Assembly: GCA_037441705.1 (NCBI GenBank)
Contig: JBBIRR010000003.1
Span: forward strand, 32,831 to 96,830
DNA length: 64,000 bases
Source: Ignavibacteriales bacterium
GTDB taxonomy: Bacteria > Bacteroidota > Ignavibacteria > UBA10030 > UBA6906
Direction of reading: 5' to 3'
Shown here: piece after piece, positions 16,987 to 62,562 of the stretch
Layout: the number at the start of each line of letters is the position of its first letter
Position numbering within the stretch: the first letter of the stretch is position 1
The notes under the pieces: model-generated
Told to the model about the DNA's origin: nothing
Seen by the model: the letters and a program-made list of their open reading frames with translations, nothing else
Database searches by the model: none
Position numbers and translations under genes: made by a program

Positions 16987-17024
16987 CTAATAACCTCCAA
17001 AAGGGGACGGGCGGCGACGCATGG

Positions 17025-17234
17025 CTACGCCGGATCATACCCGCCCGGGTGCAAAGGGTGACACTTGCTGATGCGCTTCAAGGACTTCCAAACACCTCGG
17101 GCTGGGCCATACTTCGAAATTGCATCGAGTGCATACTGAGAGCACGTGGGATAAAACCTGCAGGTGTTCGGCGGAAGCAACGGTGATATCACTGCTCGGT
17201 ACGCTCGAATGAGGGATGTCAGCATCAGCGTCAT
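17025..17234 (-). CDS. yidD: Membrane protein insertion efficiency factor YidD
   Basis: [32 protein letters not shown]...[11 protein letters not shown] is the YidD signature. The start is chosen at the internal Met, which gives an ATGA overlap with the rnpA stop (tcat at 17231-17234). The track ORF extends to 17270. Confidence 0.8.
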
Positions 17235-17635: not shown

Positions 17636-17657
17636 GCCCGGGCTCTTGCTATCCGTC

Positions 17658-17804
17658 CTATCGCTCGTCGCTTACCGTTAACTTCTTCCTGCCTTTGGCC
17701 CGACGACGAGCAAGGACTGCTCTTCCTTGCTTCGTTGCCATCCGTGCACGAAAGCCGTGCGTGTTTCGCCTTTTCCGCTCGTGTGGTTGGAACGTTCGTT
17801 TCAT
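17658..17804 (-). CDS. rpmH: 50S ribosomal protein L34
   Basis: Manual minus-strand translation gives [48 protein letters not shown], a canonical L34. It is below the ORF-track size cutoff. Coordinates are +/-2 nt. Confidence 0.85.
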
Positions 17805-18009
17805 CGTGTACTCCAGAAATCTATTAACACTATGATGCTCGGAACGCTGACAGACTTTGCCCCGCTAAGGTGTGTGTTTACGACCTTGCGAATTGTGCGA
17901 CAATAAAGGTAACCAACCGCTCCCTGAGAAACAACAAGATTTTCCACTTTTCGCTTGCTAAGCGCTGTTCCATGTTGTATAATTGCGTACAACCCTCCGT
18001 CAACCGCAG

Positions 18010-18224
18010 TGTTGATAACTCGTGAGTAGTTTGCTTTTCGTTCGCTATTTATGACCCTATGGTTTCACACGAACTGGTTGTCTGATACTTCTGTGTCACC
18101 ATTAGGCCTTATCAGGAAATGTGTTACATCCTTTGATATTGCTTTATCCACATCGTGGATAACCGCTGGATAACTCATGAAAAATTTCTTGGCTCCCTTG
18201 TCCTGTGAACAGAGTTGTGGATAA
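18010..18224 (+). promoter_or_regulatory. DnaA-box cluster in the rpmH-dnaA intergenic region (putative oriC upstream part / dnaA promoter)
   Basis: Perfect TTATCCACA at ~18144-18152 and perfect TGTGGATAA at ~18216-18224. One-mismatch boxes are CGTGGATAA (~18154) and TGTTGATAA (~18010), with weaker ones nearby. All fall within the 470-nt non-coding gap. Confidence 0.6.
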
Positions 18225-18275
18225 CTCAGCCAAGTGCGTTGAAAAATCATCTGACACATTATCCCTATTGGTGTT

Positions 18276-19742
18276 ATGATCGAGATGTTACATTCTACTG
18301 CAGAGCCCACAGAGTTTGAGCAGGCGCAGCGTATGTGGGCCGCATGCCTCGGCATGCTTAGCGAGCACATCAACTCACAGACCTTCAAGACGTGGATCGA
18401 ACCTCTGACCCCCCTTGGTCTCGAGGCGAGTGTGCTTACGCTACGCGTCCCAAGCCAGTTCTTTTACGATTGGATTGCCGAGCACTATGAGGAACTGATT
18501 ACCTCCGTGGCGTCGCATGTGCTGGGCCGACCTGCCACGATCTGTTATGAAATCGCCACCGAGGATCCTCTCGTGGACACTGAGCCGGAGACCCATCCTG
18601 TGCCCCAACAATCCCGAACGGAGAAGCGCGTCTTGCCGGCTCAATCAGAGTCTTCGCGCATGGGAAACCCGTCTCCCGCGAGTGCTCACCGAAACTCGAT
18701 GAGCTTCGAATCGCATTTGAATTACCGGTACACGTTCGAGAACTTCATCAAAGGGGAAAGCAACCAGTTTGCTCGAGCCGCCGCCACGGCCGTTGCCAAC
18801 AATCCGGGTGGAACGACGTTCAACCCGTTGGTCATCTACGGTGGGACGGGGCTCGGCAAGACCCACCTGGTGCAAGCCATCGGTAATTACGTTGCCCAAC
18901 ATAACAAGAACAAACGAGTCATCTACGTTTCGAGCGAGAAGTTCACCGTGGAGTTCGTCGACGCAATCCAAAGCGATCGCGTCAACAACTTCGCAGCGTT
19001 CTATCGCAGCATGGATATTCTCATTGTCGATGACATCCAGTTTTTTGTCGGCAAGGAGAAGACGCAGGATATGTTCTTCCACACCTTCAACGCGCTGTAC
19101 AATCTCTCCAAGCAGATTATCCTCTCGTCCGATAGGCCGCCCAAAGATCTTGACGGACTTGACGATCGACTGATTTCGCGCTTTCAATGGGGTTTAACGG
19201 CAGACATCCAGCCGCCGGACCTCGAAACACGCATTGCTATTCTCCAGCACAAGGCAAAGGACCAGCAGATCGAACTGCCGGGTGACGTGATTGAATGTCT
19301 CGCTGCGAACGTTACCACAAATATTCGTGAGCTTGAGGGCTGCCTTATCAGCTTGCTGGCGAAAGTATCCCTGGAAGGAAAAGAGCTCAATGTGGATCTC
19401 GCTCACGAAGTACTCAAGACGGTCGTCGGGCAGGTGAAATCACCCATTACAATCGAAGAGATTCAACGGACCGTCTGCGAGTATTTTGGGATTCCGGAAG
19501 ACCTCGTTCGTGCAAAAACACGAAAGCAAGAGATTGTAAATGCCCGGCAGGTTGCTATGTACCTTGCCAAGGAGCTCACTAACTCGTCGCTCAAGACGAT
19601 CGGCACACACTTCGGCGGGCGAGATCACAGCACCGTTATTCACGCCTACCAGTGCGTTGAAGATCAGATGAAGATCGATTCAAAATATCGGTCCACCGTC
19701 GAGCAGATCAAGCGTCGCCTTGAAACACGTACGCGAGTGTAA
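18276..19742 (+). CDS. dnaA: Chromosomal replication initiator protein DnaA
   Basis: 488 aa. AAA+ motifs (GGTGLGKTHL; DDIQF) and a domain IV DNA-binding helix-turn-helix (VAMYLAKELTNSSLKTIGTHFGGRDHSTVIHA). Confidence 0.95.
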   Translation: MIEMLHSTAEPTEFEQAQRMWAACLGMLSEHINSQTFKTWIEPLTPLGLEASVLTLRVPSQFFYDWIAEHYEELITSVASHVLGRPATICYEIATEDPLVDTEPETHPVPQQSRTEKRVLPAQSESSRMGNPSPASAHRNSMSFESHLNYRYTFENFIKGESNQFARAAATAVANNPGGTTFNPLVIYGGTGLGKTHLVQAIGNYVAQHNKNKRVIYVSSEKFTVEFVDAIQSDRVNNFAAFYRSMDILIVDDIQFFVGKEKTQDMFFHTFNALYNLSKQIILSSDRPPKDLDGLDDRLISRFQWGLTADIQPPDLETRIAILQHKAKDQQIELPGDVIECLAANVTTNIRELEGCLISLLAKVSLEGKELNVDLAHEVLKTVVGQVKSPITIEEIQRTVCEYFGIPEDLVRAKTRKQEIVNARQVAMYLAKELTNSSLKTIGTHFGGRDHSTVIHAYQCVEDQMKIDSKYRSTVEQIKRRLETRTRV

Positions 19743-19765
19743 GACCCGCGGGAAGTTTTGGTTCG

Positions 19766-19809
19766 TACTCCATTCTGTTGTAGTGCAGGATGGAGTATTT
19801 CTTTTCTTG
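19766..19809 (+). terminator. Rho-independent terminator after dnaA
   Basis: Inverted repeat TACTCCAT...ATGGAGTA followed by TTTCTTTTCTTG, immediately 3' of the dnaA stop. Confidence 0.55.
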
Positions 19810-20039
19810 TGATGAGTTTTTTCTTGGGTTCGGAGTTGTTGTACACACAATGTGCGCAAGTGTGTTGGTGAGGTGAAGAATGGCGTTGACAGCAGGTTGA
19901 TCAGTTTGTTCCTCTTCCGCTGATGTGCCCGCACGGCGTTCTGATGTTGATATCAACGAAGCTTACTGACATCTCATACCATCAATTTACCACTTGAGAC
20001 GATGGCTTGCTTCGCTTCAGGGTCAATCGACAACTTTGT

Positions 20040-20297
20040 TGACGAGTGCACCTGTCAACATATTCACATCCTTTATTACTACTCTTTCTTTATCCATATC
20101 TAGAAAGAAAACAATTATTACACTCATACTTGGAGACAAGCGAAGGCGGTCTAACTACGACGATCATCTTTCTATCACCTTACAGGTCAACAGGTTACTG
20201 GAAAAACATTTCTTTGAAGTCTCCCCCTTTTTGAGTAAATTTATGCTGTTTGAAGCGTCTTCATGACCCCTCATTTTCCTTACCGAAGGAGTTTAGG
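20040..20297 (+). other. Putative oriC DUE region between dnaA and dnaN. AT-rich tract with a DnaA-box-like site.
   Basis: A ~60-nt AT-rich stretch (ctttattactactctttctttatccatatctagaaagaaaacaattattacac) sits in an otherwise ~60% GC genome. It contains TTATCCATA (one mismatch to a DnaA box) at ~20089. GTTGAC/GTCAAC palindromes lie nearby. This is the classical dnaA-dnaN oriC location. Confidence 0.4.
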
Positions 20298-21413
20298 ATG
20301 AAATTCACAACAACCACCGGTGAACTTCAGCGCGCACTATCCAAGGTCAGCAGTGTCGTACCCGCGAAGTCGACGATGCCGATTCTCGAGAATATTCTGT
20401 TCGATCTTGTCAACGACACGCTGGTACTGACGGCTACGGACATGGAGATTACGCAAACGATTTCTCTTGCCGTGAAGGGGACTGAAGATGGAAGGATAGC
20501 GATACCGTCAAAGCGACTCATCGACACAGTACGCGCACTTCCGGATACGGAGATTGCGTTTACAATTGATACTACGTCTCAGAAGATAAAGCTCACAACG
20601 AAGAACGGCGAGTACAGCATCACTGGAGAGGATGCGAAGGATTTTCCGCCTGTCCCCATCATGACAAACAAAGATGAACTCGTCATTGATGGTGCCGTTC
20701 TGCGGAAGATCATCAATCGGACTGTGTTTGCCGTAAGTACCGATGAGTTGCGGCCTGCGATGATGGGTGTTTTGCTGCAACTCAAACCGAATGAATTACG
20801 GGCCGTCTCAACTGACGGGCATCGTCTTGTTCGTTTTTCGTACAAGCTGCCAAAGGATGGAGGAATAAAGGGCGATTTCATTGTACCCGCAAAAGCACTG
20901 AACGTTGTGAGCAGAACGCTTGAAGGTGGCACAGTAAAACTCGGCATCAGTCAGACGCATGTTCGTTTTGACTTCGATTCCAGCATTCTTGTTTCACGGT
21001 TGATCGCCGAAACGTATCCGAACTACGAAAGTGTCATTCCTACAGAGAATGACAAGCTCTTGACGGCTAATCGTGAGGAGATGATGTCTGCAATCCGTCG
21101 CGTTGCGCTGTATGCAAGCGCAACAACGCATCAGATCAAACTCTCGCTCCGAAAGAATCAGCTCACCGTAAGTGCTCAGGATATCGACTTCGGCGGTGAA
21201 GCGAAAGAAAAATTAGAGTGTGAATACGATGCAGATGATCTCGATATCGGATTCAATTCCGTCTACCTGGTTGACATTCTCTCCCATCTCGAGAGCGAAG
21301 CGGTCGCGTTCAAATTCAGTTCGCCTACCCGTGCCGGGGTCGTCACGCCCGCAGGCGAACACGTGGATGAGGATGTTCTGATGCTTGTGATGCCCGTACG
21401 CTTGAATGTCTGA
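20298..21413 (+). CDS. dnaN: DNA polymerase III subunit beta (sliding clamp) DnaN
   Basis: MKFTTTTGELQRALSKVSSVVPAKSTMPILENILF is typical of DnaN. An AAGGAG RBS precedes the internal ATG. The track ORF starts 48 nt upstream. Confidence 0.9.
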   Translation: MKFTTTTGELQRALSKVSSVVPAKSTMPILENILFDLVNDTLVLTATDMEITQTISLAVKGTEDGRIAIPSKRLIDTVRALPDTEIAFTIDTTSQKIKLTTKNGEYSITGEDAKDFPPVPIMTNKDELVIDGAVLRKIINRTVFAVSTDELRPAMMGVLLQLKPNELRAVSTDGHRLVRFSYKLPKDGGIKGDFIVPAKALNVVSRTLEGGTVKLGISQTHVRFDFDSSILVSRLIAETYPNYESVIPTENDKLLTANREEMMSAIRRVALYASATTHQIKLSLRKNQLTVSAQDIDFGGEAKEKLECEYDADDLDIGFNSVYLVDILSHLESEAVAFKFSSPTRAGVVTPAGEHVDEDVLMLVMPVRLNV

Positions 21414-21427
21414 TAATCAAGGAGTGA

Positions 21428-22576
21428 ATGAGAGTCACGCACTTGCGGCTGAAACATTTCAGGAACCACACCGACACATCGCTGACGTTTGGAGAGGGCA
21501 TCAATGCGTTCCTGGGAGATAACGGACAGGGGAAGACCAACGTGCTGGAGGCGCTTTCGTACCTCAGCCTCACGAAGAGTTTTTATGCCTCCGGCGACGG
21601 GACGGTTCTGCAGATCGGACGCGAGACGTTTGAGGTAGAGGGAACGATTGTGTCGGACAACGGGGTGGGGCATCAAGTACGAGTCACGTACAATCGTGGC
21701 GGTGAAAAGACGTTTACGATCAACAGCATCAAACCTGAGACACACGCCTCTGTTATCGGTCGCTTCCCGATCGTTATTCTCTCGCCGGAGAACAATGCAA
21801 TAACCTTCGGTGGGCCAGCCGAGCGCCGGAAGTTTCTCGATCTGCTGCTCTCGCAAATCAGTCGCACCTACCTCGAGGATCTGCTGGAGTACCGTCGAGC
21901 GCTCAAGCAGCGCAACAAGCTCCTGGCCGACGCACGAAACTCTCAGACATTCATTCCGGAACTTCTCGAACCGTGGACGGCTGCCCTTGTGGACCACGGC
22001 GCACGGATCATTCGTCAACGGCGCGTTTTCGTGGAAGAATTCCGCAGCGAGGTCCAGAAGGCATATCGAGAGCTTGTTGGAGAGGCGACGGGCAGCCGGG
22101 TCAGCGAGTCTCCCGACATGCGCTATTCATCCCTCCCGGGGATCGAGCAGACCGCTACGCTTGAGGAAATCAAGCGCCTGATGGCCGATGAGCTGCAGGA
22201 GCGGGTTGGCGAAGAGCGACGCAGAGGAACCACACTCGTCGGTCCGCATCGCGATGATCTGTACCTAACAATCAATGGCATCAGCATGCAGCAATTTGCA
22301 TCGCAGGGACAGCACAAGACGATGCTGATTGCTCTGAAGATTGCGGAGTTTCATTATCTCAAAGAGCGCCGTGGAGAAGTTCCGGTGGTGCTTCTTGATG
22401 ACGTGTTCAGCGAATTGGATGAACATCGCTCTCGCTTGCTGCTAACGGCCGCGTCGAGACTCGGGCAAACGTTTATCACCACGACGGACGAAGCCGTTTT
22501 CCGCGACGTCATTCGCTGGGACGGTACGCATCGAAAGTTTTATGTCGAAGCAGGAAACGTTACGAGCGTGCATTGA
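21428..22576 (+). CDS. recF: DNA replication and repair protein RecF
   Basis: MRVTHLRLKHFRNH...FLGDNGQGKTNVLEA Walker A, plus an ABC-type signature and Walker B (VVLLDDVFSELD). Confidence 0.9.
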   Translation: MRVTHLRLKHFRNHTDTSLTFGEGINAFLGDNGQGKTNVLEALSYLSLTKSFYASGDGTVLQIGRETFEVEGTIVSDNGVGHQVRVTYNRGGEKTFTINSIKPETHASVIGRFPIVILSPENNAITFGGPAERRKFLDLLLSQISRTYLEDLLEYRRALKQRNKLLADARNSQTFIPELLEPWTAALVDHGARIIRQRRVFVEEFRSEVQKAYRELVGEATGSRVSESPDMRYSSLPGIEQTATLEEIKRLMADELQERVGEERRRGTTLVGPHRDDLYLTINGISMQQFASQGQHKTMLIALKIAEFHYLKERRGEVPVVLLDDVFSELDEHRSRLLLTAASRLGQTFITTTDEAVFRDVIRWDGTHRKFYVEAGNVTSVH

Positions 22577-22920
22577 TGCAGAGGATAGGGCTCATGGCGG
22601 AGAACAAACGCAGACGACGTGTGCAGGAAGGAACGAAGAAGCAACCTGAAGCGTTCGGCAGCGCATGGGAAACGCTGGTGCATCAGTTGGGTATCACGAA
22701 GAAGATGAAGCAGGCGTTGGTGCTCAGCTCGTGGGCCGAGATCGTGGGCGAACAGATCGCGCGCGTGACGGAAGCAGAGCGCATCGAGAACGGAATTTTG
22801 TTCGTGAAAACCCTGAACGCCCCCTGGCGCAACGAGCTGACAATGCGCCGGCTGCAGATCATAGAAAAATTGAATGCAGCAGCCGGAAGCAAGGTCGTGA
22901 AAGAAATCCGATTTCGATAG
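22576..22920 (+). CDS. DUF721-domain protein, DciA-like (putative replicative-helicase operator), in the recF-gyrB slot
   Basis: ~114 aa basic protein. The segment WETLVHQLGITKKMKQALVLSSWAEIVGEQIARVTEAERIENGILFVKT resembles DUF721. Its position between recF and gyrB matches Rv0004/DciA in other phyla. TGATG overlap with the recF stop. Confidence 0.6.
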   Translation: MQRIGLMAENKRRRRVQEGTKKQPEAFGSAWETLVHQLGITKKMKQALVLSSWAEIVGEQIARVTEAERIENGILFVKTLNAPWRNELTMRRLQIIEKLNAAAGSKVVKEIRFR

Positions 22921-22937
22921 GATGCATGAGTTTTTGA

Positions 22938-24991
<2,054 letters not shown>

Positions 24992-24992
<1 letters not shown>

Positions 24993-25213
24993 TGATCAAG
25001 AACGCTCGTATCCTTGAGCAGCTCGACGCGGAGTACGATCGAGAACATCTCCGGACGCTGGAGCAGAAGTATGCAATTCTCGATGCACTCTATCTTCTTG
25101 CGAAAGATGCGGGCCACTTCGATCCCAACGATACCTCGATCGACGAGCTGGACATTGAGCTTGCAAGAGTCTTGAATGCCGACCTTTCAAAAGCTGCTGG
25201 CAAGAATTGCTGA
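24992..25213 (+). CDS. Hypothetical small protein (73 aa), translationally coupled to gyrB
   Basis: Its ATG overlaps the gyrB stop (TGATG). Helical and acidic, with no recognisable domain. It may be the partner of the adjacent nucleotidyltransferase remnant. Confidence 0.35.
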
Positions 25214-25319
25214 GGCGTTCGATCAGCATCGTATTCCGTATATGATTATTGGAGGCGTCGCGGCAATCCGGTACGGTCGGCCACGCTTGACGGATGATAT
25301 CGATATCACCTTAGTTTGA
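25176..25319 (+). pseudogene. Truncated minimal nucleotidyltransferase (MNT/Pol-beta-like) gene fragment, 47 codons
   Basis: The frame-0 ORF MPTFQKLLARIAEAFDQHRIPYMIIGGVAAIRYGRPRLTDDIDITLV* carries the GG-x-A...G-x-R-x-T-x-D-I-D-I signature of small nucleotidyltransferases. It stops after ~47 aa, ~30 nt before the gyrA RBS, whereas family members are ~100-170 aa. It overlaps the preceding small ORF. Confidence 0.4.
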
Positions 25320-25350
25320 GGCTCTCGAAGGCACACGAAGGAAAACATAA

Positions 25351-28146
25351 ATGGCAACACTGAACGAACGGATCATCCCCGTTGATATTGAAGATGAGAT
25401 GAAGGGATCGTACATCGACTACTCGATGTCGGTCATTGTGGCGCGTGCGCTGCCCGACGTGCGCGACGGCTTGAAGCCGGTTCATCGCCGCGTGTTGTTC
25501 GGCATGCACGAGCTGGGTCTCGCGTCCAACCGCCCCTACAAGAAGTCTGCCCGCATCGTGGGCGAGGTGCTCGGCAAATATCACCCCCACGGCGACGCGG
25601 CGGTGTACGATACGATGGTGCGCATGGCGCAGGATTTCTCGATGCGCTACCCGCTGGTGGACGGACAGGGGAACTTCGGTTCGATTGACGGCGACTCACC
25701 TGCGGCGATGCGGTACACCGAGGCGCGTCTGTCGCGCATTGCCGAGGAGATGCTGCGCGATCTGGAGAAGAACACCGTTGACTTCCTTCCCAACTTCGAC
25801 GACACGCTGAAAGAACCCACGGTCCTGCCGGCCCTCGTGCCGAATCTGCTCGTCAACGGCACCAGCGGCATTGCCGTCGGCATGTCCACCAACATCCCGC
25901 CGCACAATCTCTCCGAAGTGGTTGATGCCTGCATTGCCTACATCAAGGACGAGAAGATCACGAGCGAGAAGTTGATGAAGTACATCAAGGCGCCTGACTT
26001 CCCGACCGGCGGCATCATCTACGGCTACGAGGGCGTCAAGGAAGCGTACCTGACGGGCAGAGGCAAGATCATCGTCCGGGCAAAGGCAACGATCGAAACG
26101 GACAAGAAGGATCGCCAAAACATCATCATCACCGAAATACCCTATCAGGTCAACAAGCTCAGCCTCATCGAGCGCATCGCCGAGTTGGTGAACGAGAAGA
26201 AGATCGACGACATTGCAAACGTCAACGACGAATCGGACCGGGATGGGTTCCGCATCGTCGTCTCGCTGAAGAAGGATGCGAACGCCCAGGTCGTGCTGAA
26301 CAGTCTGTACAAACACACGCAGATGCAGACCACCTTCGGCGTCATCATGCTCGCGTTGGTGGACGGCAGGCCGCAGATTCTGACGCTGCGCGATCTGATC
26401 GAGAAGTTCATTCAGCATCGCAACGAAGTGGTTGTGCGGCGCGCGAAGTACGAGCTGGACGAAGCCGAGAAACGTGCGCACATCCTCGAGGGCTTCATCA
26501 TCGCGCTCGACAATATCGACGCCGTTATCAAGCTGATCAAAGGGTCGAAGGATTACGATACCGCGAAGAACGGCTTGATGAAGAAGTTCAAGCTCTCGGA
26601 GATACAGGCAAAGGCCATCCTCGACATGCGCTTGCAGCGGTTGACGGGCCTGGAGCGAAAGAAGATCGAAGAAGAGTATCGCGAGACGATCAAACTCATC
26701 GAGCAGTTGAAAGCGCTCCTGGCGAGCAAGAAACTGCAGATGCAGCTCATCGAGAAGGAGCTGCTGCAGGTGAAGGAGAAGTACGGGGACGAGCGCCGCA
26801 CGGAGATCGTCTACAAAGCCGAAGAGTTCAGCATTGAAGATACGATCGCAGAGGAAGAAGTCGTCATCACCATTTCGCACGGCGGGTACATCAAGCGCTT
26901 TCCGGTGAGCGGCTATCGGCGGCAGTCGCGTGGAACGCGCGGAGCGACCGGCGCTGCAACGCGGGAAGACGACTTCATCGAAGCGGTGTTCATCGCCTCC
27001 ACTCACGAACACATCATGCTCTTCACCGATCAGGGACGCTGCTACTGGCTGAAGGTGCATGAAATTCCCGAAGGCGGCCGGGCAACGCGCGGAAAATCCA
27101 TTGCCAACCTGATCTCGAAAGGTCCGCACGAAACGATCGTTGCCTACGTTGCGGTGAAGAGCTTCGTCGAAAATCTGAACGTGGTGATGGTAACGGAACA
27201 GGGCGTGATCAAGAAGACCGCGCTTGCCGAGTTCAGCAATCCCCGCAAGACCGGCATCGGCGCGATTGGCCTGGACAAGGGCGACAGGCTCGTGGATGTC
27301 CACCTGACCGATGGAAAGAACGACGTGGTGATCGGCACAGCTGAAGGCGTCGCGATTCGTTTCCACGAATCGGACGTGCGCGTGATGGGGAGGGCAGCCG
27401 GTGGTGTCCGTGCCATCAAGCTCGAGAAAGGTGACAAGGTGATCGGTGCAGTCGTTCTCCGCAGAGCAGGAACGTCGATCCTCGTCGCAACCGAGAACGG
27501 CTACGGCAAGCGCAGCGCTACCGACGACTATCGCGTGCAGTCGCGCGGCGGCAAAGGCATCATCACGATGAAGACCAACGAGAAGACGGGACGCATGGTC
27601 GCGATCAAAGAAGTGGCCGAGACGGACGACGTGGTCATCGTGACAGCCAACGGCATCATCCTGCGGCAGCATGCTTCAGAGATTCGACTCGCGGGGCGCA
27701 ACACGCAGGGTGTACGTCTCATCAAACTCGTCGAAGGCGACAAAGTTTCGGACGTTGCTGCCGTCCCCGCTGAAGAGGAAGAGCCGACCAACGGTGCAGC
27801 AACCATGCAAACTGCCGGCGGCGAAAAGACAAAAGCCGACGGCGACCAGCAATCACTCTTTGAAGGAGAGGATTCAGAAAAAAAAACTCTGAAGGGGGGA
27901 CAGGAGAAGAAGAGTGAGCCGTCGGGGACGAAGACCGAAACAACGACATCCCCAGTCAAGCAAACGCCAACGAAGCCGGAAAGAAAGAAGGTGCAACCGA
28001 AAGCTTCACCCGCTGTGAAGAAGACATCAGGCGGAACGAAAAAGATTCAGAAACAGCAGAAGCAAACCGGCAAGCCCGCGAGGAAACCTCAATCGAAGAA
28101 GCTCTCGAAAAAACCCGCGCCGAAAGCAGGGGGCAAGAAGAAATAG
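25351..28146 (+). CDS. gyrA: DNA gyrase subunit A with an unusual lysine-rich C-terminal tail
   Basis: Catalytic-Tyr region and a QRDR-like region ([18 protein letters not shown]), a GyrA-box-bearing beta-pinwheel CTD, then a ~125-aa low-complexity K/P/T/E tail ([42 protein letters not shown]). Confidence 0.95.
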
Positions 28147-39546: not shown

Positions 39547-42500
39547 CTACCTTCCGAACCACCCCTTCAGGTCTTGATACCGTTCCGTCAGCCACGTGAG
39601 CGCGGGGTGACCGAAGAGCGTATCCACGCCGAGCGCCGCGAGAGTCAACAGCGCCGCAACAATCAGAACAAGCACGGCGCGAAGCAGCGTGTTCTTGCCG
39701 CGCATGTAGTCGCCCAACAACCGCACGACGAGATGCACGCCGATCGTAATCCCTACCAGCGTCAGCGCTAACTGCTGCATCGGGCTGATGGTGAGTACCG
39801 TGGCAAAGACGAGCAGCAACGCTTCAAAGGTGTAGAGAACTTTGAGCCAATGTTTGAAGATGAGATTGAGGAGACTGCCCGGGGAAGCGACGATTACGAG
39901 ACTCCAGAAGATTTGACCGATCCGCGCAATCCACGCCACCGACGTCTTGTTCATGCTGCGCTTCTCAGCCATTCCCTCCAGCATCTTGCCGATGATCCGT
40001 GTTGATCGTGAGATGATCGTCAGCATTGCCTCGGGGTCAGGCGCGCGGCGCACCGTGTAGCCCGTGCGGAAATATTCGAGCAACTGTTCCTTCGTGAGCA
40101 GATAGCGGAACACGGACTGCATCTTTGTGTTGAGCGAGGAGCCGTATGCCTCTTCCAGCATTTCACGCAGCGCGGAGTCGCTCAAGCGCTTGGCGGGAGC
40201 TGTGCGTGCGAGAATCTCCGTCAGCACGGTCCAGATTTCCTGACGATCCTCCGGCTGCAAGTCCTCTTCGAGGATAGCCGCGTGCGCTTCGGCAATTAAC
40301 TGCTTGCGTTGTTCGGCAAGCTCCTCTCCCGGCAGCATTGCCGCAATGATGCGTTCCGCGCCATCGAGTCTGCCCCAGAGGATGTCGTTCTTACGCCAGA
40401 GCGTGTCGAGGAAGGCTCCGAAGTTCGCCAGCGCCGTTCCGGCAAGCTTGCTGCGGCCGTCGGGACGCCGCCGCTCGGCGCGCTCGTCAATCAGGCTCCG
40501 CGCATCTTCGGGACTGATGCGGATGACCTCGACGGTATCCAGCTCGCCGGCGCCGGTGTTGTACAGCGCGGGAAACGTAATCAGGTCGTAGTCGTCGTAG
40601 TACTGATAGTAGTGCCAGAGGCATTCTTTCGCGATCCGTTCCGGTGTCTCCTTTTCACCCCTTGCCGGTTTGAGCGTCTCGACGCTCAGGCGCGAGGCCT
40701 CGCTGGTTGCTTTGAGAATGTACTCGGCAAGTTTTGCCGCGAGAATCTTCAGTCGTTGTTCCACGACGGGGTCGTCAACGATTGCTCGCGCTTGCGGCAT
40801 CCGCTCAAGCTCGCTCCGTTTCAGAATACTCTCCAGGCGTTCGGCAGAAATACCTATTGCCGTGACGTACTCGTGCATGGGGTTTTTGTTGATACGAGCA
40901 TGAAGGGCTTGCTGCGCCGCGTTGAGTATGGAAAACGCCTCGTTGAGTCGTGAACGCATAAGGACCAGCTGCCTGCGGAATGCCTCGGCCTCCTTCCCAT
41001 TCAGATTGAAACTGATGCCGATGCTCTTGAGCAGGCCTTCCGCCTCCGGGCCGCCGCCGTAGAGAACATCCGACTTCCCTTGAACAAACACCGTGCGCCG
41101 AATTCTGTAGCCAAGATCAAAGTCTAACAGAAAGCGATTCTCGGTAAGCTGCTCCTCTTTCGGCTTGTTCTTCGCGTAGTAGACGGTGTAGTGCTTGCTG
41201 CGCCAGGCGCGGATGAGATAGCGGATGGCAAGCAGATGGTCGGAGTTCTCATCAAGACCGGCCGCGCGCACGATCAGCTCGGCAAGCTCGTCAGTCACCG
41301 CGCCCACCTTCAGGCGCTGGTACCCGCCGTAGCCGATGCCTTTCTGACGAATCATCTCCTTCAAATCCTGATTCGCCCAGTCCAGTCCCTTCTTCGGCTC
41401 TATGCGCGCCCCTTTCACCGCATTCACATCATCCTCGATGCCGCGCGTGATGCGCATGATGCGTTCCACCATTGCGTTGCGCTGCAGAACACGCTGCAAA
41501 TCCTCGCGGATTGTTTCGTAGCGCGGCAGCGTCAGCACGGCCGCCTGCACATTCTCCAGGGCGTCGGGCTTAGCTGATGTTTCGGGAATTTCCTCCGGAT
41601 GCTGCGGCGCCGGCTCGATGTAGATCAGCTTGCGATCGATGGGAAGATTTGCCTGCCTCCCGACGAGCGCATCAATGGCGTAGCTGAAGGGCTTGTTGTC
41701 GAGATAGCCGCCGTCGCCGAAGAAGCGATTCGGGAACGGAATACTCGCGCCGGTTTGCACCGCACGGTAGTTCTCGATGAATCGTTCCCATAACGGACTG
41801 CCGGACGTGAGATCCGTCTTGCTGTAAGGCTCAATGCGGCGGACGAAGTCGTCGATATCGCTCAGGCGCATTGGTTCGAAGGCGAACGGAAAGGACGACG
41901 TGCAGCGCGCGGCAAAGGCGAGGAAAGGATTGAACTCACGCGCAAAGTCGTTGCGGAGATAAACCGTCTGCGTTCCTGTGGAGGCAGCAAAGTCGGTGCG
42001 CGACGGCTCGCCGTGCGGCGTCGCGTAGTAGCGGAAGTGAAACACATTCTTGTGGCGGCGTTCGTAGACGATGTCGTCGGCCAGACGCAGCGGCACCGTC
42101 ACGCCCTGGATGTCCGTTGCGGTCACGAACAGATCCACCTCATCGCCGAACGGCGAGCGTTCGCTCGCTCCCGCGGCTTCCATCCCATCGAATGCCTTCA
42201 ACAGTTTCAGGTACATGCGTTTGCTGTTGAGCAGGGACGTTGGCGGGTCTTGTAGTGAAAGAAGGGATTCCTTCTTCACCGAATGCTTATCGTTCAGCAG
42301 CAAGCCGATATCGCCCTCCTCCACCCACAAACGTTTGAGATCGTCAAGAGGCTGGTTGTTGGCGAGCGCTTTGGCGAGAAAGATGGCATTGATGCCGCCG
42401 GCGGAGGTTCCCGAAAGCACATCAATGACGAAGCGCGTGCGGATAGGGTCGGATTCTCCCACCTCTTGCAGCGGCCGATGGCCCGTGAGCATCTGTCCCA

Positions 42501-42723
42501 ACTTGCGGTAGACTCGCTCGGTGCCCGTCAGCTCCGCGTTGAGCAGGAGAGGCTGATCGGGACTGTCGGGATTGGCAGGGGCGGTCGCACGCACCAGACG
42601 ATACAACTCCTGCGCAATGCCGTTGATGTAGATGGCCAGCGAGACGCCGCCGTACATCACGATGGCGAGTCGAACTTCCTGAGTGAATCGGCATTGCGGC
42701 GTGACAGTCGACGCGGCACTCAT
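39547..42723 (-). CDS. Large patatin-like phospholipase (1058 aa) with a DUF3376-like C-region and C-terminal TM helices
   Basis: N-terminal patatin domain with the oxyanion G-G-x-S motif (MYGGVSLAIYINGIAQEL), the GTSAG nucleophile (GXSXG) and the catalytic Asp in FFGDGGYLDNKPF (DGG). It is followed by ~650 aa of helical sequence ending in 3-4 predicted TM helices. Confidence 0.8.
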   Translation of the reverse strand: MSAASTVTPQCRFTQEVRLAIVMYGGVSLAIYINGIAQELYRLVRATAPANPDSPDQPLLLNAELTGTERVYRKLGQMLTGHRPLQEVGESDPIRTRFVIDVLSGTSAGGINAIFLAKALANNQPLDDLKRLWVEEGDIGLLLNDKHSVKKESLLSLQDPPTSLLNSKRMYLKLLKAFDGMEAAGASERSPFGDEVDLFVTATDIQGVTVPLRLADDIVYERRHKNVFHFRYYATPHGEPSRTDFAASTGTQTVYLRNDFAREFNPFLAFAARCTSSFPFAFEPMRLSDIDDFVRRIEPYSKTDLTSGSPLWERFIENYRAVQTGASIPFPNRFFGDGGYLDNKPFSYAIDALVGRQANLPIDRKLIYIEPAPQHPEEIPETSAKPDALENVQAAVLTLPRYETIREDLQRVLQRNAMVERIMRITRGIEDDVNAVKGARIEPKKGLDWANQDLKEMIRQKGIGYGGYQRLKVGAVTDELAELIVRAAGLDENSDHLLAIRYLIRAWRSKHYTVYYAKNKPKEEQLTENRFLLDFDLGYRIRRTVFVQGKSDVLYGGGPEAEGLLKSIGISFNLNGKEAEAFRRQLVLMRSRLNEAFSILNAAQQALHARINKNPMHEYVTAIGISAERLESILKRSELERMPQARAIVDDPVVEQRLKILAAKLAEYILKATSEASRLSVETLKPARGEKETPERIAKECLWHYYQYYDDYDLITFPALYNTGAGELDTVEVIRISPEDARSLIDERAERRRPDGRSKLAGTALANFGAFLDTLWRKNDILWGRLDGAERIIAAMLPGEELAEQRKQLIAEAHAAILEEDLQPEDRQEIWTVLTEILARTAPAKRLSDSALREMLEEAYGSSLNTKMQSVFRYLLTKEQLLEYFRTGYTVRRAPDPEAMLTIISRSTRIIGKMLEGMAEKRSMNKTSVAWIARIGQIFWSLVIVASPGSLLNLIFKHWLKVLYTFEALLLVFATVLTISPMQQLALTLVGITIGVHLVVRLLGDYMRGKNTLLRAVLVLIVAALLTLAALGVDTLFGHPALTWLTERYQDLKGWFGR

Positions 42724-42829
42724 GGGGATGCCTCCGGTTGGATAGTGGGAGATGGCGAAGTTGTGCGACCATCTTACTCATTCGCATTGCCAATGTCAAG
42801 CAAAACATCTGCTCGCGGCCACTTCCTCC

Positions 42830-43975
42830 GTCATTCTGAGCGAGCGCAGCGAGCGAGGAATCCAGAACGAGCATCAGCCTGAATCTTGAACCCCAAACCT
42901 CAAACCTCGAACCGACCCGCGCCTCACGCCGCCCGCTCTTCCGTCACGGCACAAGGTTGCGCACAGAAGCCGTGATGTCCGGTCGCCGTCGTCACCCTGA
43001 GCGCAGTCCCGCCGCTTTTCAGGCGGGACGGAGTCGAAGGGTGTTCCGCGCAATTGTGTAGGGACACGGCTCCGCCGTGTCCTAATGTGAGGAACGCTGA
43101 ATGGTTGCGTTGATGATCCGCGGCGTGTACACGCGTAAAGCAGGACATGCCGGAGGCATGTCCCTACAATCATGTTCGCCGGGTCTGGATGCTTCGCGCT
43201 TGGAAAGCAGCGCTCAGCATGACGGAGTAGTCCACTTCCCGCCCTTCCGTCACGGCACAAGGTTGCGCGCGTAAGCCGTGACATCCGATCGCTTCGTCAC
43301 CCCGAGCGCAGTCCCGCCGCTTTTCAGGCGGGACGGAGTCGAAGGGTGGATGCTTCGCGCTTGGAAAGCAGCGCTCAGCATGACAGTGTTGGCCAGTGCA
43401 ACCTCCGCGTTGCGTACTCGTGGGTCACGTAGTGACCTCACGACGATAGCCCGACCTTTCAAGGTCGGGATACCAATCACAGGCCCATCATACCCGTCGC
43501 GTAGCGACGGAATGAAAACTTGGTGATCACGAGAGAAGCGCGAAACGGAGTGTCAACGTGGCGAGGCGATACAGGCCGCCCCTACGGGGCTTACGTTCTT
43601 TTAGGCATTGTCAGCGCTACAAACAGGTCGTCCCTACGGGACTTGCGAGGAGCACGAGTGTTGATTTGAGCATCCGCTCCGTAGGAGCGGTACTGTCTGT
43701 AGAACTCAACGGCAAGGACATCGCGCAAGCCCCATCGGCGCGACCTGATCATGTTCCGATCCGCGAATCCTGAATCCGCCCGCCGAACCCCGAACCTCGA
43801 ACCATGCATCCGCGATTGAACATGGCGACCCGGGTCTCACGCCGCCCGCCCTTCCGTCACGGCACAAGGTTGCGCGCATAAGCCGTGACGTCCGATCGCT
43901 TCGTCATTCTGAGCCTCGCTTTTCGGAGGCGAAGAATCCAGAACGAGAATCAACCTGAATCCTGAATCTCGAATC
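42830..43975. repeat. Intergenic nest of modular structured short repeats (REP/MITE-like): families X, Y, Z, W plus extra hairpins
   Basis: Unit X (GTCATTCTGAGC...GAATCCAGAACGAG-ATCA-CCTGAATCyTGAA) at ~42830-42895 and ~43902-43975. Unit Y (CGCCGCCCGCyCTTCCGTCACGGCACAAGGTTGCGC...AAGCCGTGAyrTCCGrTCGC..CGTCAC) at ~42927-43043, ~43236-43347 and ~43840-43905. Copies A and B of Y continue with GAGCGCAGTCCCGCCGCTTTTCAGGCGGGACGGAGTCGAAGGGTG. Unit Z (GGATGCTTCGCGCTTGGAAAGCAGCGCTCAGCATGAC) at ~43187-43223 and ~43346-43383. Unit W (CCGyCCCTACGGGrC) hairpins at ~43575, ~43627 and ~43674. Several further perfect hairpins lie between them. Confidence 0.7.
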
Positions 43976-44139
43976 CTGCATCGTAACTCCCCACCACAAC
44001 CCCCGAACGCGAATCCGTCGCTCCAGCATTCCGGGGTAGCCAGATGCGGTTCGTTGATTTTCCCTATGCTTTTGGTTACTTTGAATCCCAGTTCTGTCCC
44101 GGCACTAAAGTCGGGAGTGGTATTTGTTGAGAAGCCTTC

Positions 44140-45273
44140 ATGCCCGATCAGACATCCGAACCCTCCGGCCAGCAACAACCCGAGCGCCCGCAGCGTCCCT
44201 ACCGGGGTCGCCATTACTATCGTGACCGGCGACGGGAAGCCGAAACGACCACGGCCGAGACGGAAGGACAACCGACGCAGACGCCGCAGGTGCCGCCGCA
44301 GCAGCGACAGGAGCAGAGACAACACGGTCAGCAGCATCATAAAGGGATCGACATCAGTGTTGTCATCCCGCTCTATAACGAAGAGGAGTCGCTCAAAGAA
44401 CTCCACCAGCAGCTCCGCTCCACGTTGCAGCGGATGCGCGTTCGCTATGAACTGCTGTTCGTTGACGACGGCAGCACGGATCGTTCGTTCAATGTGCTGC
44501 GCGACGCGAAGCGATTCGATGGTCGCGTCAAAATCATCCGCTTCCGCCGCAACTACGGCAAATCTGCAGCGCTTGCCGTCGGCTTCGAGAAAGCTCAGGG
44601 CACGTACGTCGTTACCATGGACGCCGATTTGCAGGATGATCCGGCAGAGATTCCTTCGCTGATCAAGAAACTCGAAGAGGGCTATGATCTGGTCTCGGGA
44701 TGGAAGAAGGTACGCCGCGATCCCATCACGAAGACAATTCCCTCCCGCTTCTTCAACTTCGTTACGTCGTTGATGACGGGAATAAAGATTCACGACTTCA
44801 ACTGTGGATTGAAGGCGTATCGCAACGAAGTGGTGAAGGCAATTCAGCCGTACGGCGAGCTTCATCGCTATCTGCCCGTGCTTGCGCACAACGCGGGGTT
44901 TCGGGTGGGGGAGATGGTGGTGCAACACCGGCCGCGCAAGTACGGCAAAACGAAGTTCGGGGTGGGGAGATTCTGGAAAGGGTTTCTCGACCTTCTGACG
45001 GTGCTCTTTACGACGCGCTATTTCCGCCGTCCGCTCCATCTGTTTGGTTTTTGGGGGATGGCGTGTGCGCTGACCGGCATGGTGATCGACGGCTGGCTTG
45101 CCATCGAGTGGCTTCAGGGCAAGACGGCATTGAGCAACCGGCCGCTCTTCCTCGGTGGTATTCTTCTGATCATTGTGGGGATTCAGTTCGTGTCGATCGG
45201 TCTTCTCGGTGAGATGATTAGCAAGTCGAAACGCACGACCGACGAATATACAATCCGCGACTACATCAAGTAA
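44140..45273 (+). CDS. GT2 polyprenyl-phosphate glycosyltransferase (GtrB/CsbB/ArnC-like) with a Q/R/P-rich N-terminal extension
   Basis: ISVVIPLYNEEESL...LLFVDDGSTDRS...YGKSAALAVGFEKAQGTYVVTMDADLQDDP (DXD), and two C-terminal TM helices as in GtrB/CsbB. The first ~70 aa are low complexity (QQQPERPQRP...QQRQEQRQHGQQHH). Confidence 0.8.
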   Translation: MPDQTSEPSGQQQPERPQRPYRGRHYYRDRRREAETTTAETEGQPTQTPQVPPQQRQEQRQHGQQHHKGIDISVVIPLYNEEESLKELHQQLRSTLQRMRVRYELLFVDDGSTDRSFNVLRDAKRFDGRVKIIRFRRNYGKSAALAVGFEKAQGTYVVTMDADLQDDPAEIPSLIKKLEEGYDLVSGWKKVRRDPITKTIPSRFFNFVTSLMTGIKIHDFNCGLKAYRNEVVKAIQPYGELHRYLPVLAHNAGFRVGEMVVQHRPRKYGKTKFGVGRFWKGFLDLLTVLFTTRYFRRPLHLFGFWGMACALTGMVIDGWLAIEWLQGKTALSNRPLFLGGILLIIVGIQFVSIGLLGEMISKSKRTTDEYTIRDYIK

Positions 45274-45358
45274 GCGAAATGATATCTGAACTCTCGAGGC
45301 GCAGCTCCTGTCCGCCCTTGCTCCTGCTGCGCGATCGAATGTTCCTATCCGCTCTGCC

Positions 45359-46456
45359 ATGACGATCTCGTACGAAACGCTCAAGACCGACTGCCGGTGG
45401 TTTGTGGGACAGGTGCCGTGCAGGCCTCACAAGCAGCACGGTGTGCATTGTGTTGACGAAGCAGGGAATGACTGTCCGCATTACGAACGGCAGATCTCCA
45501 ACATCCTTATCATCAAACTCGGTGCGCTGGGCGATGTCATTCGCACGACGCCGATCCTGCGGCGCTTGCGGGCAGAGTATCCACAGGCGCGTATCTGGTG
45601 GGTGACGCTCTCACCCGAAGTGGTGGAGCCGTTTGTTGATGTCGCGCTTCCGCTGGATGCCGAACATTTCCCGGCGTTGCAGTCCACGCAGTTCGACATC
45701 ATTTACAACCTCGACAAAGAAACCGAAGCCTGCGGCCTGATGGCCTCGCTTTCGGCGCGCGTCAAGAAAGGATTCACGCTTGTCCACGGCAAGCCGGCAC
45801 CGATCGATGCCGACGCAGTTCATAAGTTTATGACGGGGGTCTTCGATGATCTCAACAAAGCCAACACCAAGAGTTATCCGGAAGAGATTTTCGAAATCTG
45901 CGGCTTTCGCTTTGCCGGCGAAAAATATCTGTTAGATGTTCCGCCTGCAGATGCGTACCGATGGAAATTGCCGAAGAAGAAGCCTATCATTGGATTGAAC
46001 ACGGGTTGCGGCGGACGATGGGTTTCCCGCTTGTGGCCCGAGAAACACTGGGTAGCGCTTGCGCGCACGCTGAAGAAGGCTGGTTACGTGCCGCTGCTGT
46101 TGGGCGGAGAACAGGAGGATGCAAAGAATCGGCGTATAGCGCGATTGAGCGGCGCGACGTATCTCGGGCATTTCCCGTTTCGACAATTCATCTCCTTGGT
46201 TGACCAATGCGATCTCGTCGTGACCGCCGTGACGATGGCGATGCATGTGACAATTGGATTGAACAAGAAGATCGTGTTGTTCAATAATATCTTTAACAGG
46301 CACGAGTTCGAGTTGTATGGATTGGGGGAAATTTTGGAGCCGGACTTCGACTGCACATGTTATTTCTCACCAACGTGTCCCAACAACTGCATGCAGTACA
46401 TTTCGGTGGATCGCGTGTTCGAGACCGTTCGATCTCTACTCCGCCGTGATCACTAA
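45359..46456 (+). CDS. Glycosyltransferase family 9 (heptosyltransferase-like)
   Basis: NILIIKLGALGDVIRTTPILRRLRAEYPQARIWWVT N-terminus, and the ...GGRWVSRLWPEKHWVALARTL... GT9 C-domain. Confidence 0.7.
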   Translation: MTISYETLKTDCRWFVGQVPCRPHKQHGVHCVDEAGNDCPHYERQISNILIIKLGALGDVIRTTPILRRLRAEYPQARIWWVTLSPEVVEPFVDVALPLDAEHFPALQSTQFDIIYNLDKETEACGLMASLSARVKKGFTLVHGKPAPIDADAVHKFMTGVFDDLNKANTKSYPEEIFEICGFRFAGEKYLLDVPPADAYRWKLPKKKPIIGLNTGCGGRWVSRLWPEKHWVALARTLKKAGYVPLLLGGEQEDAKNRRIARLSGATYLGHFPFRQFISLVDQCDLVVTAVTMAMHVTIGLNKKIVLFNNIFNRHEFELYGLGEILEPDFDCTCYFSPTCPNNCMQYISVDRVFETVRSLLRRDH

Positions 46457-61326: not shown

Positions 61327-61667
61327 GGTGTTCACGTTCAGGGAGCTTCACGCGCGCAAACGTATCGGTTGGTGATGACGGTGGAGTTGTGAGATGCCGG
61401 TGGTGCTGCGCGCGTTAGGCGCCCGAAGGGTGCCCGCCGTTTTGGGGCGGGCAGTGCTGAGCGCTGTTCAGCGAAGCACCGCAGCGGAAGCGGAGCCCGC
61501 AGGGCGCCGACGGCGCTGCGAAGCGTTCAGCGCCGGAACGCCCAACATTTCTCTTGTTTGCGCGTGCTCCGTGTAGGTTGATTCTGTGCTCCGCCTTGTC
61601 TATATTGCACGTGCTTCTCAACGACCGTTCAACTGTTTATTCATTAGCTTAGAGGAGAGAATCTCTC

Positions 61668-61964
61668 ATGCCAGACCTATCTTTGGACGCGCTTGGGATG
61701 GTGGAAACGAAGGGGCTGGTTGGTTCGATCGAGGCGGCCGATGCGATGGTAAAAGCTGCACGCGTGACCCTGATCGGGAAAGAGGTGATCGGTGGTGGAT
61801 ATGTTACCGTCATGGTGCGGGGCGATGTCGGTGCCGTGAAAGCGGCGACGGATGCAGGCGCAGCGGCAGCGCAACGCGTAGGCGAGTTGGTGTCGGTGCA
61901 TGTGATCCCGCGGCCGCATGCCGACGTTGAGATGATTCTCCCCAAGCGTCCCGCCGACAAGTAA
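61668..61964 (+). CDS. Bacterial microcompartment shell protein, BMC-H (PduA/EutM/CcmK family, Pfam00936)
   Basis: [77 protein letters not shown] matches the PduA-type BMC-H hexamer protein across its full length. AGGAGAG RBS upstream. Confidence 0.9.
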
Positions 61965-62019: not shown

Positions 62020-62562
62020 TTGCCTATGATGACCCTGGAATATGCACTGGGCATGGTCGAGACCCGCGGCCTCGTGGGTTCCATCGAGGCTGCCGACGTG
62101 ATGGTGAAGACTGCCAACGTTCGCCTGCTCGATGCGGAATACATCCGCAACGGGTACGTCACGATCAAGTGTGTCGGTGACGTAGCGGCGGTGAAAGCGG
62201 CCGTGGAGGCGGCGGCGGCAGCGGCACAGCGTGTCGGGCAGTTGATTGCCACGCACGTGATCCCGCGCCCTGCAGCGGAGGTAGAGCCGATCATGCGCAG
62301 GCAAGCGAAGGGGTTGGGGCCAGCATCCCCTACGGCCACAGGGTCGGGGTCGTTTGCGGAGGATAGGCCCGCCGCGCCCGATCTGTTCCAGGCGAGCGCC
62401 GATGATAATGAGTATCGCGCTCAGCTTGAAGCCATGACCGTGCATCAACTGCGAACGCTTGCCCGTGAAGTGGGGGGACTGGGGATTTATGGGCGAGAGA
62501 TTTCCAAAGCCGACAAGAAGCAGTTGATCTCCGAGCTTATGAAGAGACGAAAGGGCGCGTAG
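62020..62562 (+). CDS. BMC-H shell protein fused to a ~90-aa C-terminal extension ending in a Rho_N/SAP-like helical motif
   Basis: N-terminal 90 aa ([76 protein letters not shown]) form a BMC-H domain. The tail LEAMTVHQLRTLAREVGGLGIYGREISKADKKQLISELMKRRKG resembles the Rho termination factor N-terminal (Rho_N) helix-extended motif. Confidence 0.85.
   Translation: MPMMTLEYALGMVETRGLVGSIEAADVMVKTANVRLLDAEYIRNGYVTIKCVGDVAAVKAAVEAAAAAAQRVGQLIATHVIPRPAAEVEPIMRRQAKGLGPASPTATGSGSFAEDRPAAPDLFQASADDNEYRAQLEAMTVHQLRTLAREVGGLGIYGREISKADKKQLISELMKRRKGA

Follow-up and report, generated by a model that had tools for sequence, protein, structure and literature searches.

Between two divergently transcribed genes of an Ignavibacteriales bacterium lies a gap of 1416 bp (42724-44139) whose short repeats and hairpins raise the question of what kind of DNA this is. 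The gap is part of a stretch of 64,000 nucleotides (contig JBBIRR010000003.1 of assembly GCA_037441705.1, positions 32,831 to 96,830), referred to below as the window, in which all coordinates are given. An earlier note on this DNA had described a dense nest of at least five families of hairpin-forming repeats, built almost entirely from reused modules. The density was borne out: kilobase 43 holds 14 entries for perfect hairpins with a stem of at least 7 bp (about seven of them distinct), compared with approximately 1.4 entries per kb window-wide. Repeats and hairpins occupy a block of 1.24 kb (42804-44045), called the nest in this work. The number of families had been over-split, as units X and Z and the 3' half of unit Y turned out to be one family, and a tally of mapped modules covers only about 60% of the insert, a stretch at 43389-43764 being single-copy.

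We consider it probable that the nest is a cluster of the repetitive extragenic palindrome (REP) class, located in a dispensable spacer between divergent promoters, and that its main component is a variant of the CGTC-tagged REP/SRM repeats with an expanded interior. Judged from the sequence, the head and tail of this variant appear to be those already known, while the structurally expanded interior appears to be new here. The nest most probably serves neither as coding sequence nor as an RNA gene. It is real but fairly ordinary bacterial DNA, either selfish-repeat junk or recombination-control DNA; its interest is modest in itself and somewhat greater as a clue to what the nucleases discussed below may target.

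Hairpin units X, Z and M form one family

Six copies of a (C/T)GTC-headed hairpin are present in the gap, at 42829 (+), 42990 (+), 43224 (-), 43295 (+), 43385 (-) and 43902 (+), and represent three subtypes designated X, Z and M. They share a common scaffold consisting of the head, an outer stem of 5-6 bp that starts with A, a GA/GA internal loop, an inner stem that is variable and covarying, and a GCTTTYCR loop; X and Z in addition have the tail ATCCAG. M is the 3' half of unit Y, and Z belongs to the X/M scaffold as its reverse complement. Outer arms vary by subtype yet remain complementary (ATTCT/AGAAT, ATGCT/AGCAT and CACCCT/AGGGTG). Compensatory change has conserved the structure of X, Z and M, which are one hairpin family. 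Within the gap, six occurrences of the motif GTCANNCTGAGC were counted, five of them exact and one with a single mismatch; it also occurs once by chance inside a gene.

The units were scored with a covariance model (model R1) whose seed comprised twelve short-type elements. X2 (43902-43941, +), a CGTC-headed two-stem hairpin with the tail CCAG and the layout ATTCT / GA / GCCTC / GCTTTTCG / GAGGC / GA / AGAAT, is a seed member with 59.4 bits. The same holds for Z1 (43186-43224, -; 57.8 bits), CGTC-headed with the layout ATGCT / GA / GCGCT / GCTTTCCA / AGCGC / GA / AGCAT and the tail CCA, and for the TGTC-headed Z2 (43347-43385, -; 59.6 bits). As the earlier note had stated, Z occurs twice around the middle Y: the two copies flank Y2 and M4 and are identical at 38 of 38 nucleotides (43186-43223 and 43347-43384). 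Outside the seed, the model recognised X1 (42829-42865, +; 23.5 bits, E 2.7e-4) and M2 (42990-43043, +; 15.4 bits). X1, a degenerate copy, is CGTC-headed with the tail ATCCAG; its interior is degenerate and its fold no better than that of shuffles (z +0.7). M2 is a CGTC-headed long two-stem hairpin (z -3.3) with the inner stem GTCCCGCC/GGCGGGAC inside the CACCCT/AGGGTG outer stem and the loop GCTTTTCA. The long hairpin is present a second time as M4 (43295-43348, +), which makes up a tail-to-tail dimer together with Z2. Folded as DNA, M and the GTAG pair described below did far better than shuffles (z from -3.1 to -4.8); X2 and Z folded as described with modest values from -1.1 to -1.9. The placement of unit X at both ends of the nest was likewise confirmed (42853-42890 and 43929-43966, 89% identity).

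Heads read CGTCAT in X1, X2 and Z1, TGTCAT in Z2, and CGTCAC in M2, M4 and Y1 to Y3, all in agreement with the head HGTCWY of the SRM pattern introduced below. The CGTC or TGTC tag is unpaired in six of six X, Z and M units. A C directly after the palindrome and a tail conforming to RNCYNB are present in X1, X2 and Z1 (ATCCAG) and in Z2 (ATCCAC), and CCA follows the stem in the same four units and not in M. Stems start with AT in X and Z and with AC in M, and the dimensions are 5-6 bp, GA/GA, 5-8 bp and an 8-nt loop.

Composition of the nest

Y hairpins have the general form CGTCACGGC, an 18-nt loop and GCCGTGAC, the downstream arm of Y1 being GCCGTGATG. Each is preceded by a conserved linker and followed, at a fixed distance of 11-12 nt, by an X or M unit with its CGTC head. 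Y1 is located at 42942-42977 (+; linker 42913-42941), Y2, identified by repeat comparison and fold, at 43248-43283 (+), and Y3 at 43855-43890 (+; linker 43826-43854). The claim that unit Y occurs three times at more than 85% identity was correct, with 91% between 42932-43043 and 43238-43348 and 97% between 43238-43299 and 43845-43906. The junctions are mosaic: the upstream linker of Y1 is common with Y3 and its downstream unit is common with Y2. These identities (91% for the Y+M segment, 97% for Y, 100% for Z) and the mosaic junctions fit a nest that would have grown mainly by local duplication and by recombination between hairpins.

Two REPs of another type lie between M2 and Z1. REP R1 (43058-43082, +) consists of GTAG followed by a 9-bp perfect stem (GGACACGGC-TCC-GCCGTGTCC), and the inverted, GTAG-headed REP R2 (43143-43167, -) also has a 9-bp stem; together they form a REPIN-like doublet with 27-nt arms that are 85% complementary, a 58-nt spacer and a fold z of -4.8. 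Matches to GTAGGG elsewhere in the window were at chance level and had no hairpins.

Three heptamer microsatellites that were not part of the earlier note were detected with TRF, all in plus orientation: AACCTCA x3.6 at 42889-42913 in tail 1 (42866-42913), CCGAACC x3 at 43783-43803 in tail 3 (43763-43803), and CCTGAAT x4.1 at 43954-43982 in tail 4 (43942-44010). The single-copy stretch 43389-43764 contains six small palindromes (43423-43437, 43450-43469, 43494-43510, 43578-43590, 43630-43642 and 43674-43690), five of them with GTA/TAC triloops, and its open reading frames (ORFs) belong to no Pfam family. Three identical palindromic hairpins had been reported; CCCTACGGG is found exactly at 43580 and 43632 only, the third, at 43678, being the variant TCCGTAGGA. 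The further stems named alongside them are all present as perfect hairpins. Y hairpins, GTAG doublet, heptamer microsatellites and small palindromes travel with the X and M units. Start-to-start spacings of 161, 305-306, 607 and 1073-1076 nt, with heterogeneous units in both orientations, uphold the statement that the nest is not a CRISPR array.

Occurrence of the two-stem variant in Acidobacteriota

The generic pattern GTCANNCTGAGC...GCTTTYCR...CGAAG retrieved at least 116 stretches from the GTDB species representatives, nearly all of them from Acidobacteriota and several per genome; chance alone, by our own estimate, would yield about a dozen. The pattern was not found in IMG/VR. Model R1 yielded 152 matches in 100 loci, with clusters reaching seven in 8 kb. 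Acidobacteriota genomes contain the two-stem variant in multiple, clustered copies, often as heads-outward inverted pairs: with 211 heads in 889 kb, neighbours at most 400 nt apart were arranged in tandem in 26 cases, heads outward in 17 and heads inward in two.

Sequence variation among these elements follows the predicted pairing. Across 129 instances the head is TGTC in 69 and CGTC in 45, and the outer stem shows the pair combinations TC/GA (81), TG/CA (6), TT/AA (3) and CC/GG (2). Around the constant loop 26 distinct inner stems were counted, and a perfect inner stem of at least 7 bp is present in 16 of 79 unique elements versus 0.4% after random re-pairing of the halves. In a 12-sequence alignment 96% of the cells pair, with a covariation score of 0.419; shuffles give 0.091 (0 of 500) and slid registers no more than 0.061. 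Taken over the locus and its Acidobacteriota relatives, the interior is free to vary and the head, GA/GA bulge, loop and tail are fixed.

In some Acidobacteriota loci the hairpin is found inside composites of 130-250 nt that resemble MITEs (miniature transposable elements with inverted repeats) and have long terminal inverted repeats (GGTAGTGGTGCAGTTTGA ... CAAATTGCACCACTACC; L052, L053, L100 and L024; L031, L058 and L113). Nested hairpins (...CGAAGagcctgCCCTGAGCG.AGTCGAAGGGATC) also occur among the composite loci. Immediately behind the hairpins, L048, L054 and L087 have an 18-nt unit (GGAAAATCAAAACCTTAG) in tandem arrays, an arrangement reminiscent of the heptamer tails that follow X1 and X2.

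Within the window but outside the gap, model R1 matched only 61454-61480, a marginal, tag-less hairpin (17.1 bits, E 0.016). A second and smaller group of hairpins, in a region with a fold z of -2.3 to -2.7, occupies 61415-61545 on the far edge of the glycan island that begins next to the nest. It includes TGCCCGCCGTTTTGGGGCGGGCA, similar to the inner hairpin of M, and GTGCTGAGCGCTGTTCAGCGAAGCAC, which has the scaffold of outer stem, GA/GA and inner stem without the CGTC head.

Comparison with known repeat classes

CGTC-tagged REPs (CGTC-1 to CGTC-4; Di Nocera, De Gregorio, Rocco, BMC Genomics 2013, 14:522; PMC3733652) are defined by an unpaired CGTC or TGTC tag, with CCTC also allowed, an 8-9 bp stem with A and T at positions one and two and hence an A-T start, a 4-5 nt loop and a CCA tail; in 2013 they had no dedicated transposase and no RAYT association (RAYT, REP-associated tyrosine transposase). 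X1, X2, Z1 and Z2 resemble them in the tag, the stem start (A-T, then T-A) and the CCA tail, and the nest does so in its intergenic site, its dimers and clusters, and the lack of an adjacent transposase. They differ in the stem, which comprises 5+5 bp split by GA/GA instead of 8-9 contiguous bp, and in the loop, which has 8 instead of 4-5 nt. Moreover, inverted pairs in Acidobacteriota are mostly tail-to-tail (17 versus 2) whereas those of the 2013 paper are mostly head-to-head, and Acidobacteria are not among the five phyla given there for CGTC repeats (PMC3733652).

The partner of CGTC-type repeats was named in 2025 as Ssn, a group of small single-domain GIY-YIG nucleases (cd10448) that in Neisseria and Wolbachia bind and cut hairpins of the NTS type as single-stranded DNA (ssDNA) only and have been characterised in four species only (Nat Commun 2025, 16:2388; PMC11893778). 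NTS (Neisseria Transformation Sequence), also known as dRS3, is CGTCATTCCCGCGMAVGCGGGAATCYRG and was generalised as SRM (Ssn-related motif). The three nucleotides 5' of the palindrome are needed for cleavage and the C that comes directly after it for binding, the identity of the loop does not matter and its extension is tolerated; ssn genes are typically bracketed by the hairpin repeats (PMC11893778). The likeness to the units described here is close at both ends: X2 reads CGTCATTC[24 nt]GAATCCAG and NTS reads CGTCATTC...GAATCYRG. Both are oriented hairpins with a (H)GTCWY head directly 5' of the palindrome, followed by C and an ATCYRG tail, and both occur in clusters adjoining particular gene groups; the Acidobacteriota copies, furthermore, bracket small single-domain GIY-YIG genes with their heads outward. 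In contrast, the interior in the window is 24-41 nt long with two stems, GA/GA and a conserved 8-nt loop, as opposed to an 8-9 bp stem and a 3-5 nt loop in SRM; M lacks the tail, the window holds no ssn-like gene, and the hairpins are known here from sequence alone.

Features of two further classes are recognisable. REP R1 and REP R2 resemble GTAG REPs and REPINs in their head, 9-bp GC-rich stem, inverted arrangement and short spacer, and the whole nest resembles a mosaic of the kind known as bacterial interspersed mosaic elements (BIMEs); this is, however, a single doublet with no other copy found and no RAYT in the window. With MITEs and composites of the Correia or RPE type the nest shares the small size, non-coding nature, inverted-repeat ends, nesting and clustering, and spurious ORFs, and the Acidobacteriota relatives include the MITE-like composites with long terminal inverted repeats. 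It differs from them in that there is no clear target-site duplication and no related transposase, and in having structured hairpin ends instead of simple terminal inverted repeats. Overall, the earlier proposal of stacked REP/MITE-like elements is supported by the CGTC-superfamily head, stem start and tail, the one GTAG pair, and a family that is multi-copy and clustered elsewhere.

Association with small GIY-YIG genes in Acidobacteriota

In Acidobacteriota the two-stem variant was found to bracket GIY-YIG genes at all four gene loci examined (L011, L110, L124-L133 and L134-L139), which encode proteins of 109-113 aa. The ORFs of L110 and L011 are 112-113 aa long, match PF01541 only and are enclosed by inverted hairpins with heads outward; the L110 pair scored 27.4 bits each with model R1, although neither is in its training set. 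Loci of homologues from other samples (P0241 and P0176) are flanked by two to three such hairpins. At a mutS2 / GIY-YIG / dnaG locus, L124 and L127 encode an identical GIY-YIG protein and have three and two tandem upstream hairpin units of about 190 nt, respectively, so that such arrays change in copy number within a population.

As the hairpins bracket GIY-YIG genes with their heads outward, the variant may behave, by analogy with NTS, as the SRM of a GIY-YIG clade, for which membership in cd10448 is a candidate assignment only. Since no GIY-YIG gene or remnant was found in the window or in approximately 52 kb of relatives, the link to a nuclease is made for the nest by analogy only: its hairpins would serve as substrates for an Ssn-like nuclease whose gene lies elsewhere in the genome, and the M4-Z2 tail-to-tail dimer would be a gene-less derivative of a hairpin-ssn-hairpin unit. 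By the same analogy with NTS clusters, a nest at the border of the glycan island could, speculatively, affect recombination or local DNA topology. If the pairing of hairpin and nuclease holds, the target range of Ssn would be wider, which would be useful for programmable ssDNA cutting, and there would be a concrete candidate for the spread of such repeats. It would also explain a class of repeats at which assemblies of short reads break and from which spurious ORFs arise in soil metagenomes.

A more far-reaching version combines three statements, namely that the two-stem hairpin is the recognition element of a distinct clade of GIY-YIG ssDNA nucleases, that clusters act as recombination fences, and that dimers are gene-less derivatives. 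We give this combination only a small probability. The clade may then be spread over Acidobacteriota and bacteria of the FCB group, and the fences, with the group at 61415-61545 at the far edge, may control exchange of the surface-glycan island as NTS clusters do around variable genes of Neisseria. If it were true, heads-outward dimers would represent a route to REP proliferation that involves neither HUH nor DDE enzymes.

Genomic context of the nest

The left neighbour of the gap encodes a 1058-aa protein with Patatin and DUF3376 domains (39547-42723, -). Its right neighbour is a GT2 glycosyltransferase gene (44140-45273, +), the first of a long glycan-biosynthesis operon that continues with GT9, YfhO, GT1, methyltransferases and a flippase. 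A type IX secretion system (T9SS) sorting domain is present among the window proteins and, together with the names carried by homologues of the GT2 protein, points to a bacterium of the Bacteroidota or Ignavibacteria type.

In the syntenic relative L122 (GCA_964539775.1), which has an 87% identical GT2 protein and the same order of SurA, patatin and GT2, the gap measures 329 bp only. Its left 80 nt align with 42724-42803, the promoter-proximal flank of the patatin gene (93% identity to L122 9709-9751), and its right 90 nt or so align with 44046-44139, the promoter and 5' leader region of the GT2 operon, which is conserved at 91-95% identity in L118-L123. This right flank is kept in two more relatives, one of them with a different left neighbour. 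The middle segment of the L122 gap aligned with the nest no better than shuffles did, giving no sign of a relic of the elements. Because both flanks are conserved and the block is missing from L122, the nest is a lineage-specific block of 1.24 kb at a synteny breakpoint bordering the glycan island. A sigma-70-type -35/-10 match resembling a promoter for the patatin gene (TTGACA-17-TAAGAT) is located at 42799-42771. Located between this site and the conserved GT2-proximal flank, the nest is probably upstream of the two divergent promoters. In the right flank, a -7 box of the Bacteroidetes type (TAnnTTTG) was considered and is not claimed, the fit being inexact (TACTTTG).

Two Logan contigs from an independent short-read assembly (SRR11582170) match the edges 42724-42930 and 43935-44139 exactly, and both break inside repeats. 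Three independent contigs (L123, L001 and L140) each have position 1 exactly at or inside the repeat block upstream of the GT2 operon. Such contig ends indicate that the repeats break short-read assemblies.

ORFs of the gap belong to no Pfam family and the gap contains no tRNA, in line with the earlier view that its ORFs are spurious and repeat-derived; 42804-44045 is non-coding repeat DNA, and ORFs there should not be annotated. A 515-aa ORF (43837-45384, -) which is antisense to the GT2 gene and runs into the nest is almost certainly spurious. No transposase of any kind, including RAYT, was found in the 64-kb window.

Alternative explanations

Several results weigh against the assignment to a dispersed CGTC-REP/SRM class. 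As to structure, M2 and M4 have no ATC tail (after GGGTG comes T or G), the CGTC head of Y is paired as part of its stem, and stem and loop lengths fall outside the definitions of CGTC-1 to CGTC-4. The published SRM pattern HGTCWYN(0-2)YYVSBRHN(0-5)WNVSBRGN(0-2)RNCYNB has no match on either strand of the window, as the hairpin interior is too long. As to distribution, no other copy is present in the remaining 62.6 kb of the window or in relatives, barring the one marginal, tag-less hairpin. The exact Y core was not found in GTDB representatives, JGI metagenomes or IMG/VR, the exact M core not in JGI metagenomes and the exact Z core not in IMG/VR; with these cores missing from the scanned collections, dispersal of the Y, M and Z subtypes is unproven. 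A blastn search with the whole gap against plasmids and phages gave no match. As to the nuclease, no GIY-YIG gene or remnant was found in the 64-kb window, in the gap or in approximately 52 kb of relatives, and the host is of the Bacteroidota/Ignavibacteria type, the GIY-YIG association having been seen only in Acidobacteriota. For the Acidobacteriota proteins themselves NCBIfam gave no match and PDB only a weak one, to a UPF0213 protein; their AlphaFold model is poor (pLDDT 54.7).

These negative results in copies and cores, the within-locus identities of 91-100%, and the L124/L127 arrays that change copy number in place would also be accounted for by purely local segmental duplication of units outside any dispersed or mobile family of the genome, an explanation that is possible for Y. 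For the nest as a whole we consider it unlikely. In head, stem and tail the units are built like a family that has multiple copies in many genomes and compensatory changes in its stems, and three subtypes with different stems on one scaffold are hard to derive by duplication alone. Furthermore, modules recur in a second genome. The sole protein-search match for a spurious gap ORF was P0121, a spurious ORF of 200 aa from another public NCBI genome, in which the Z-M dimer (34 aa at 79% aa identity, E 5e-15), the Y stem with spacer (RSDVTAY) and heptamer-tail peptides are all encoded, in a module order that differs from that of the window.

Mobilisation of a classical REP/BIME cluster by RAYT, an HUH tyrosine transposase of the IS200/IS605 type, without any link to GIY-YIG proteins was also considered. 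Clusters of mixed REPs (BIMEs) are well known, and the inverted GTAG doublet at 43058-43167 fits the published description of REPs and REPINs (PMC3733652). The GTAG head is, however, found on only two of about 11 hairpin units, the rest having CGTC or TGTC, for which no RAYT association existed in 2013; the window lacks a transposase, and at the inspected loci the CGTC-type variant brackets GIY-YIG genes and not Y1 transposases. This origin therefore seems quite improbable.

To a similar degree we doubt that the nest is the scar of a decayed larger mobile element, for instance a hairpin-ssn-hairpin unit or an insertion sequence that has lost its gene, with X1 and Z1, or else X1 and X2, at its ends. 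The heads of X1 and Z1 do form a 17-nt inverted repeat (94% complementary) enclosing 402 nt, and heads-outward pairs are the layout seen around GIY-YIG genes. In addition, the octamer CCACTTCC stands on either side of the X1...Z1 composite (42818-42825 and 43233-43240) and resembles a target duplication; since most heads have CTTCC as their usual 5' context, it may not be one. X1 and X2, in turn, are direct and not inverted repeats, and searches of the gap for remnants of a GIY-YIG or other protein gave only noise, even at very permissive thresholds.

Finally, a cluster of small structured RNA genes, also proposed in the earlier note, or a long structured leader regulating the patatin gene or the glycan operon, is very unlikely despite stable hairpins, covarying stems and the view of Di Nocera et al. 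that many REPs act as RNA elements (PMC3733652), because the Rfam scan gave no match at gathering score window-wide (the best sub-threshold scores in the gap being 13-15 bits versus gathering scores of 37-45), units occur on either strand, the position of the block is upstream of both genes' conserved promoter-proximal flanks, the block is missing from a close relative that has these two genes, and SsnA is inactive on RNA (PMC11893778).

Other features of the window

To the right of the hairpins at 61415-61545, two bacterial microcompartment shell proteins with a BMC domain (PF00936) are encoded on the plus strand at 61668-61964 (E 3e-29) and 62020-62562 (E 5e-27); longer minus-strand ORFs that overlap these genes have no family match. 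On the other side of the nest, the region 15187-28146 is a chromosomal replication-origin neighbourhood with yidC (-), dnaA, dnaN, recF, gyrB and gyrA. The minimum of the cumulative GC skew and a dip in GC content (0.47-0.50) coincide at approximately 19-21 kb, which places the nest about 23 kb to the right.

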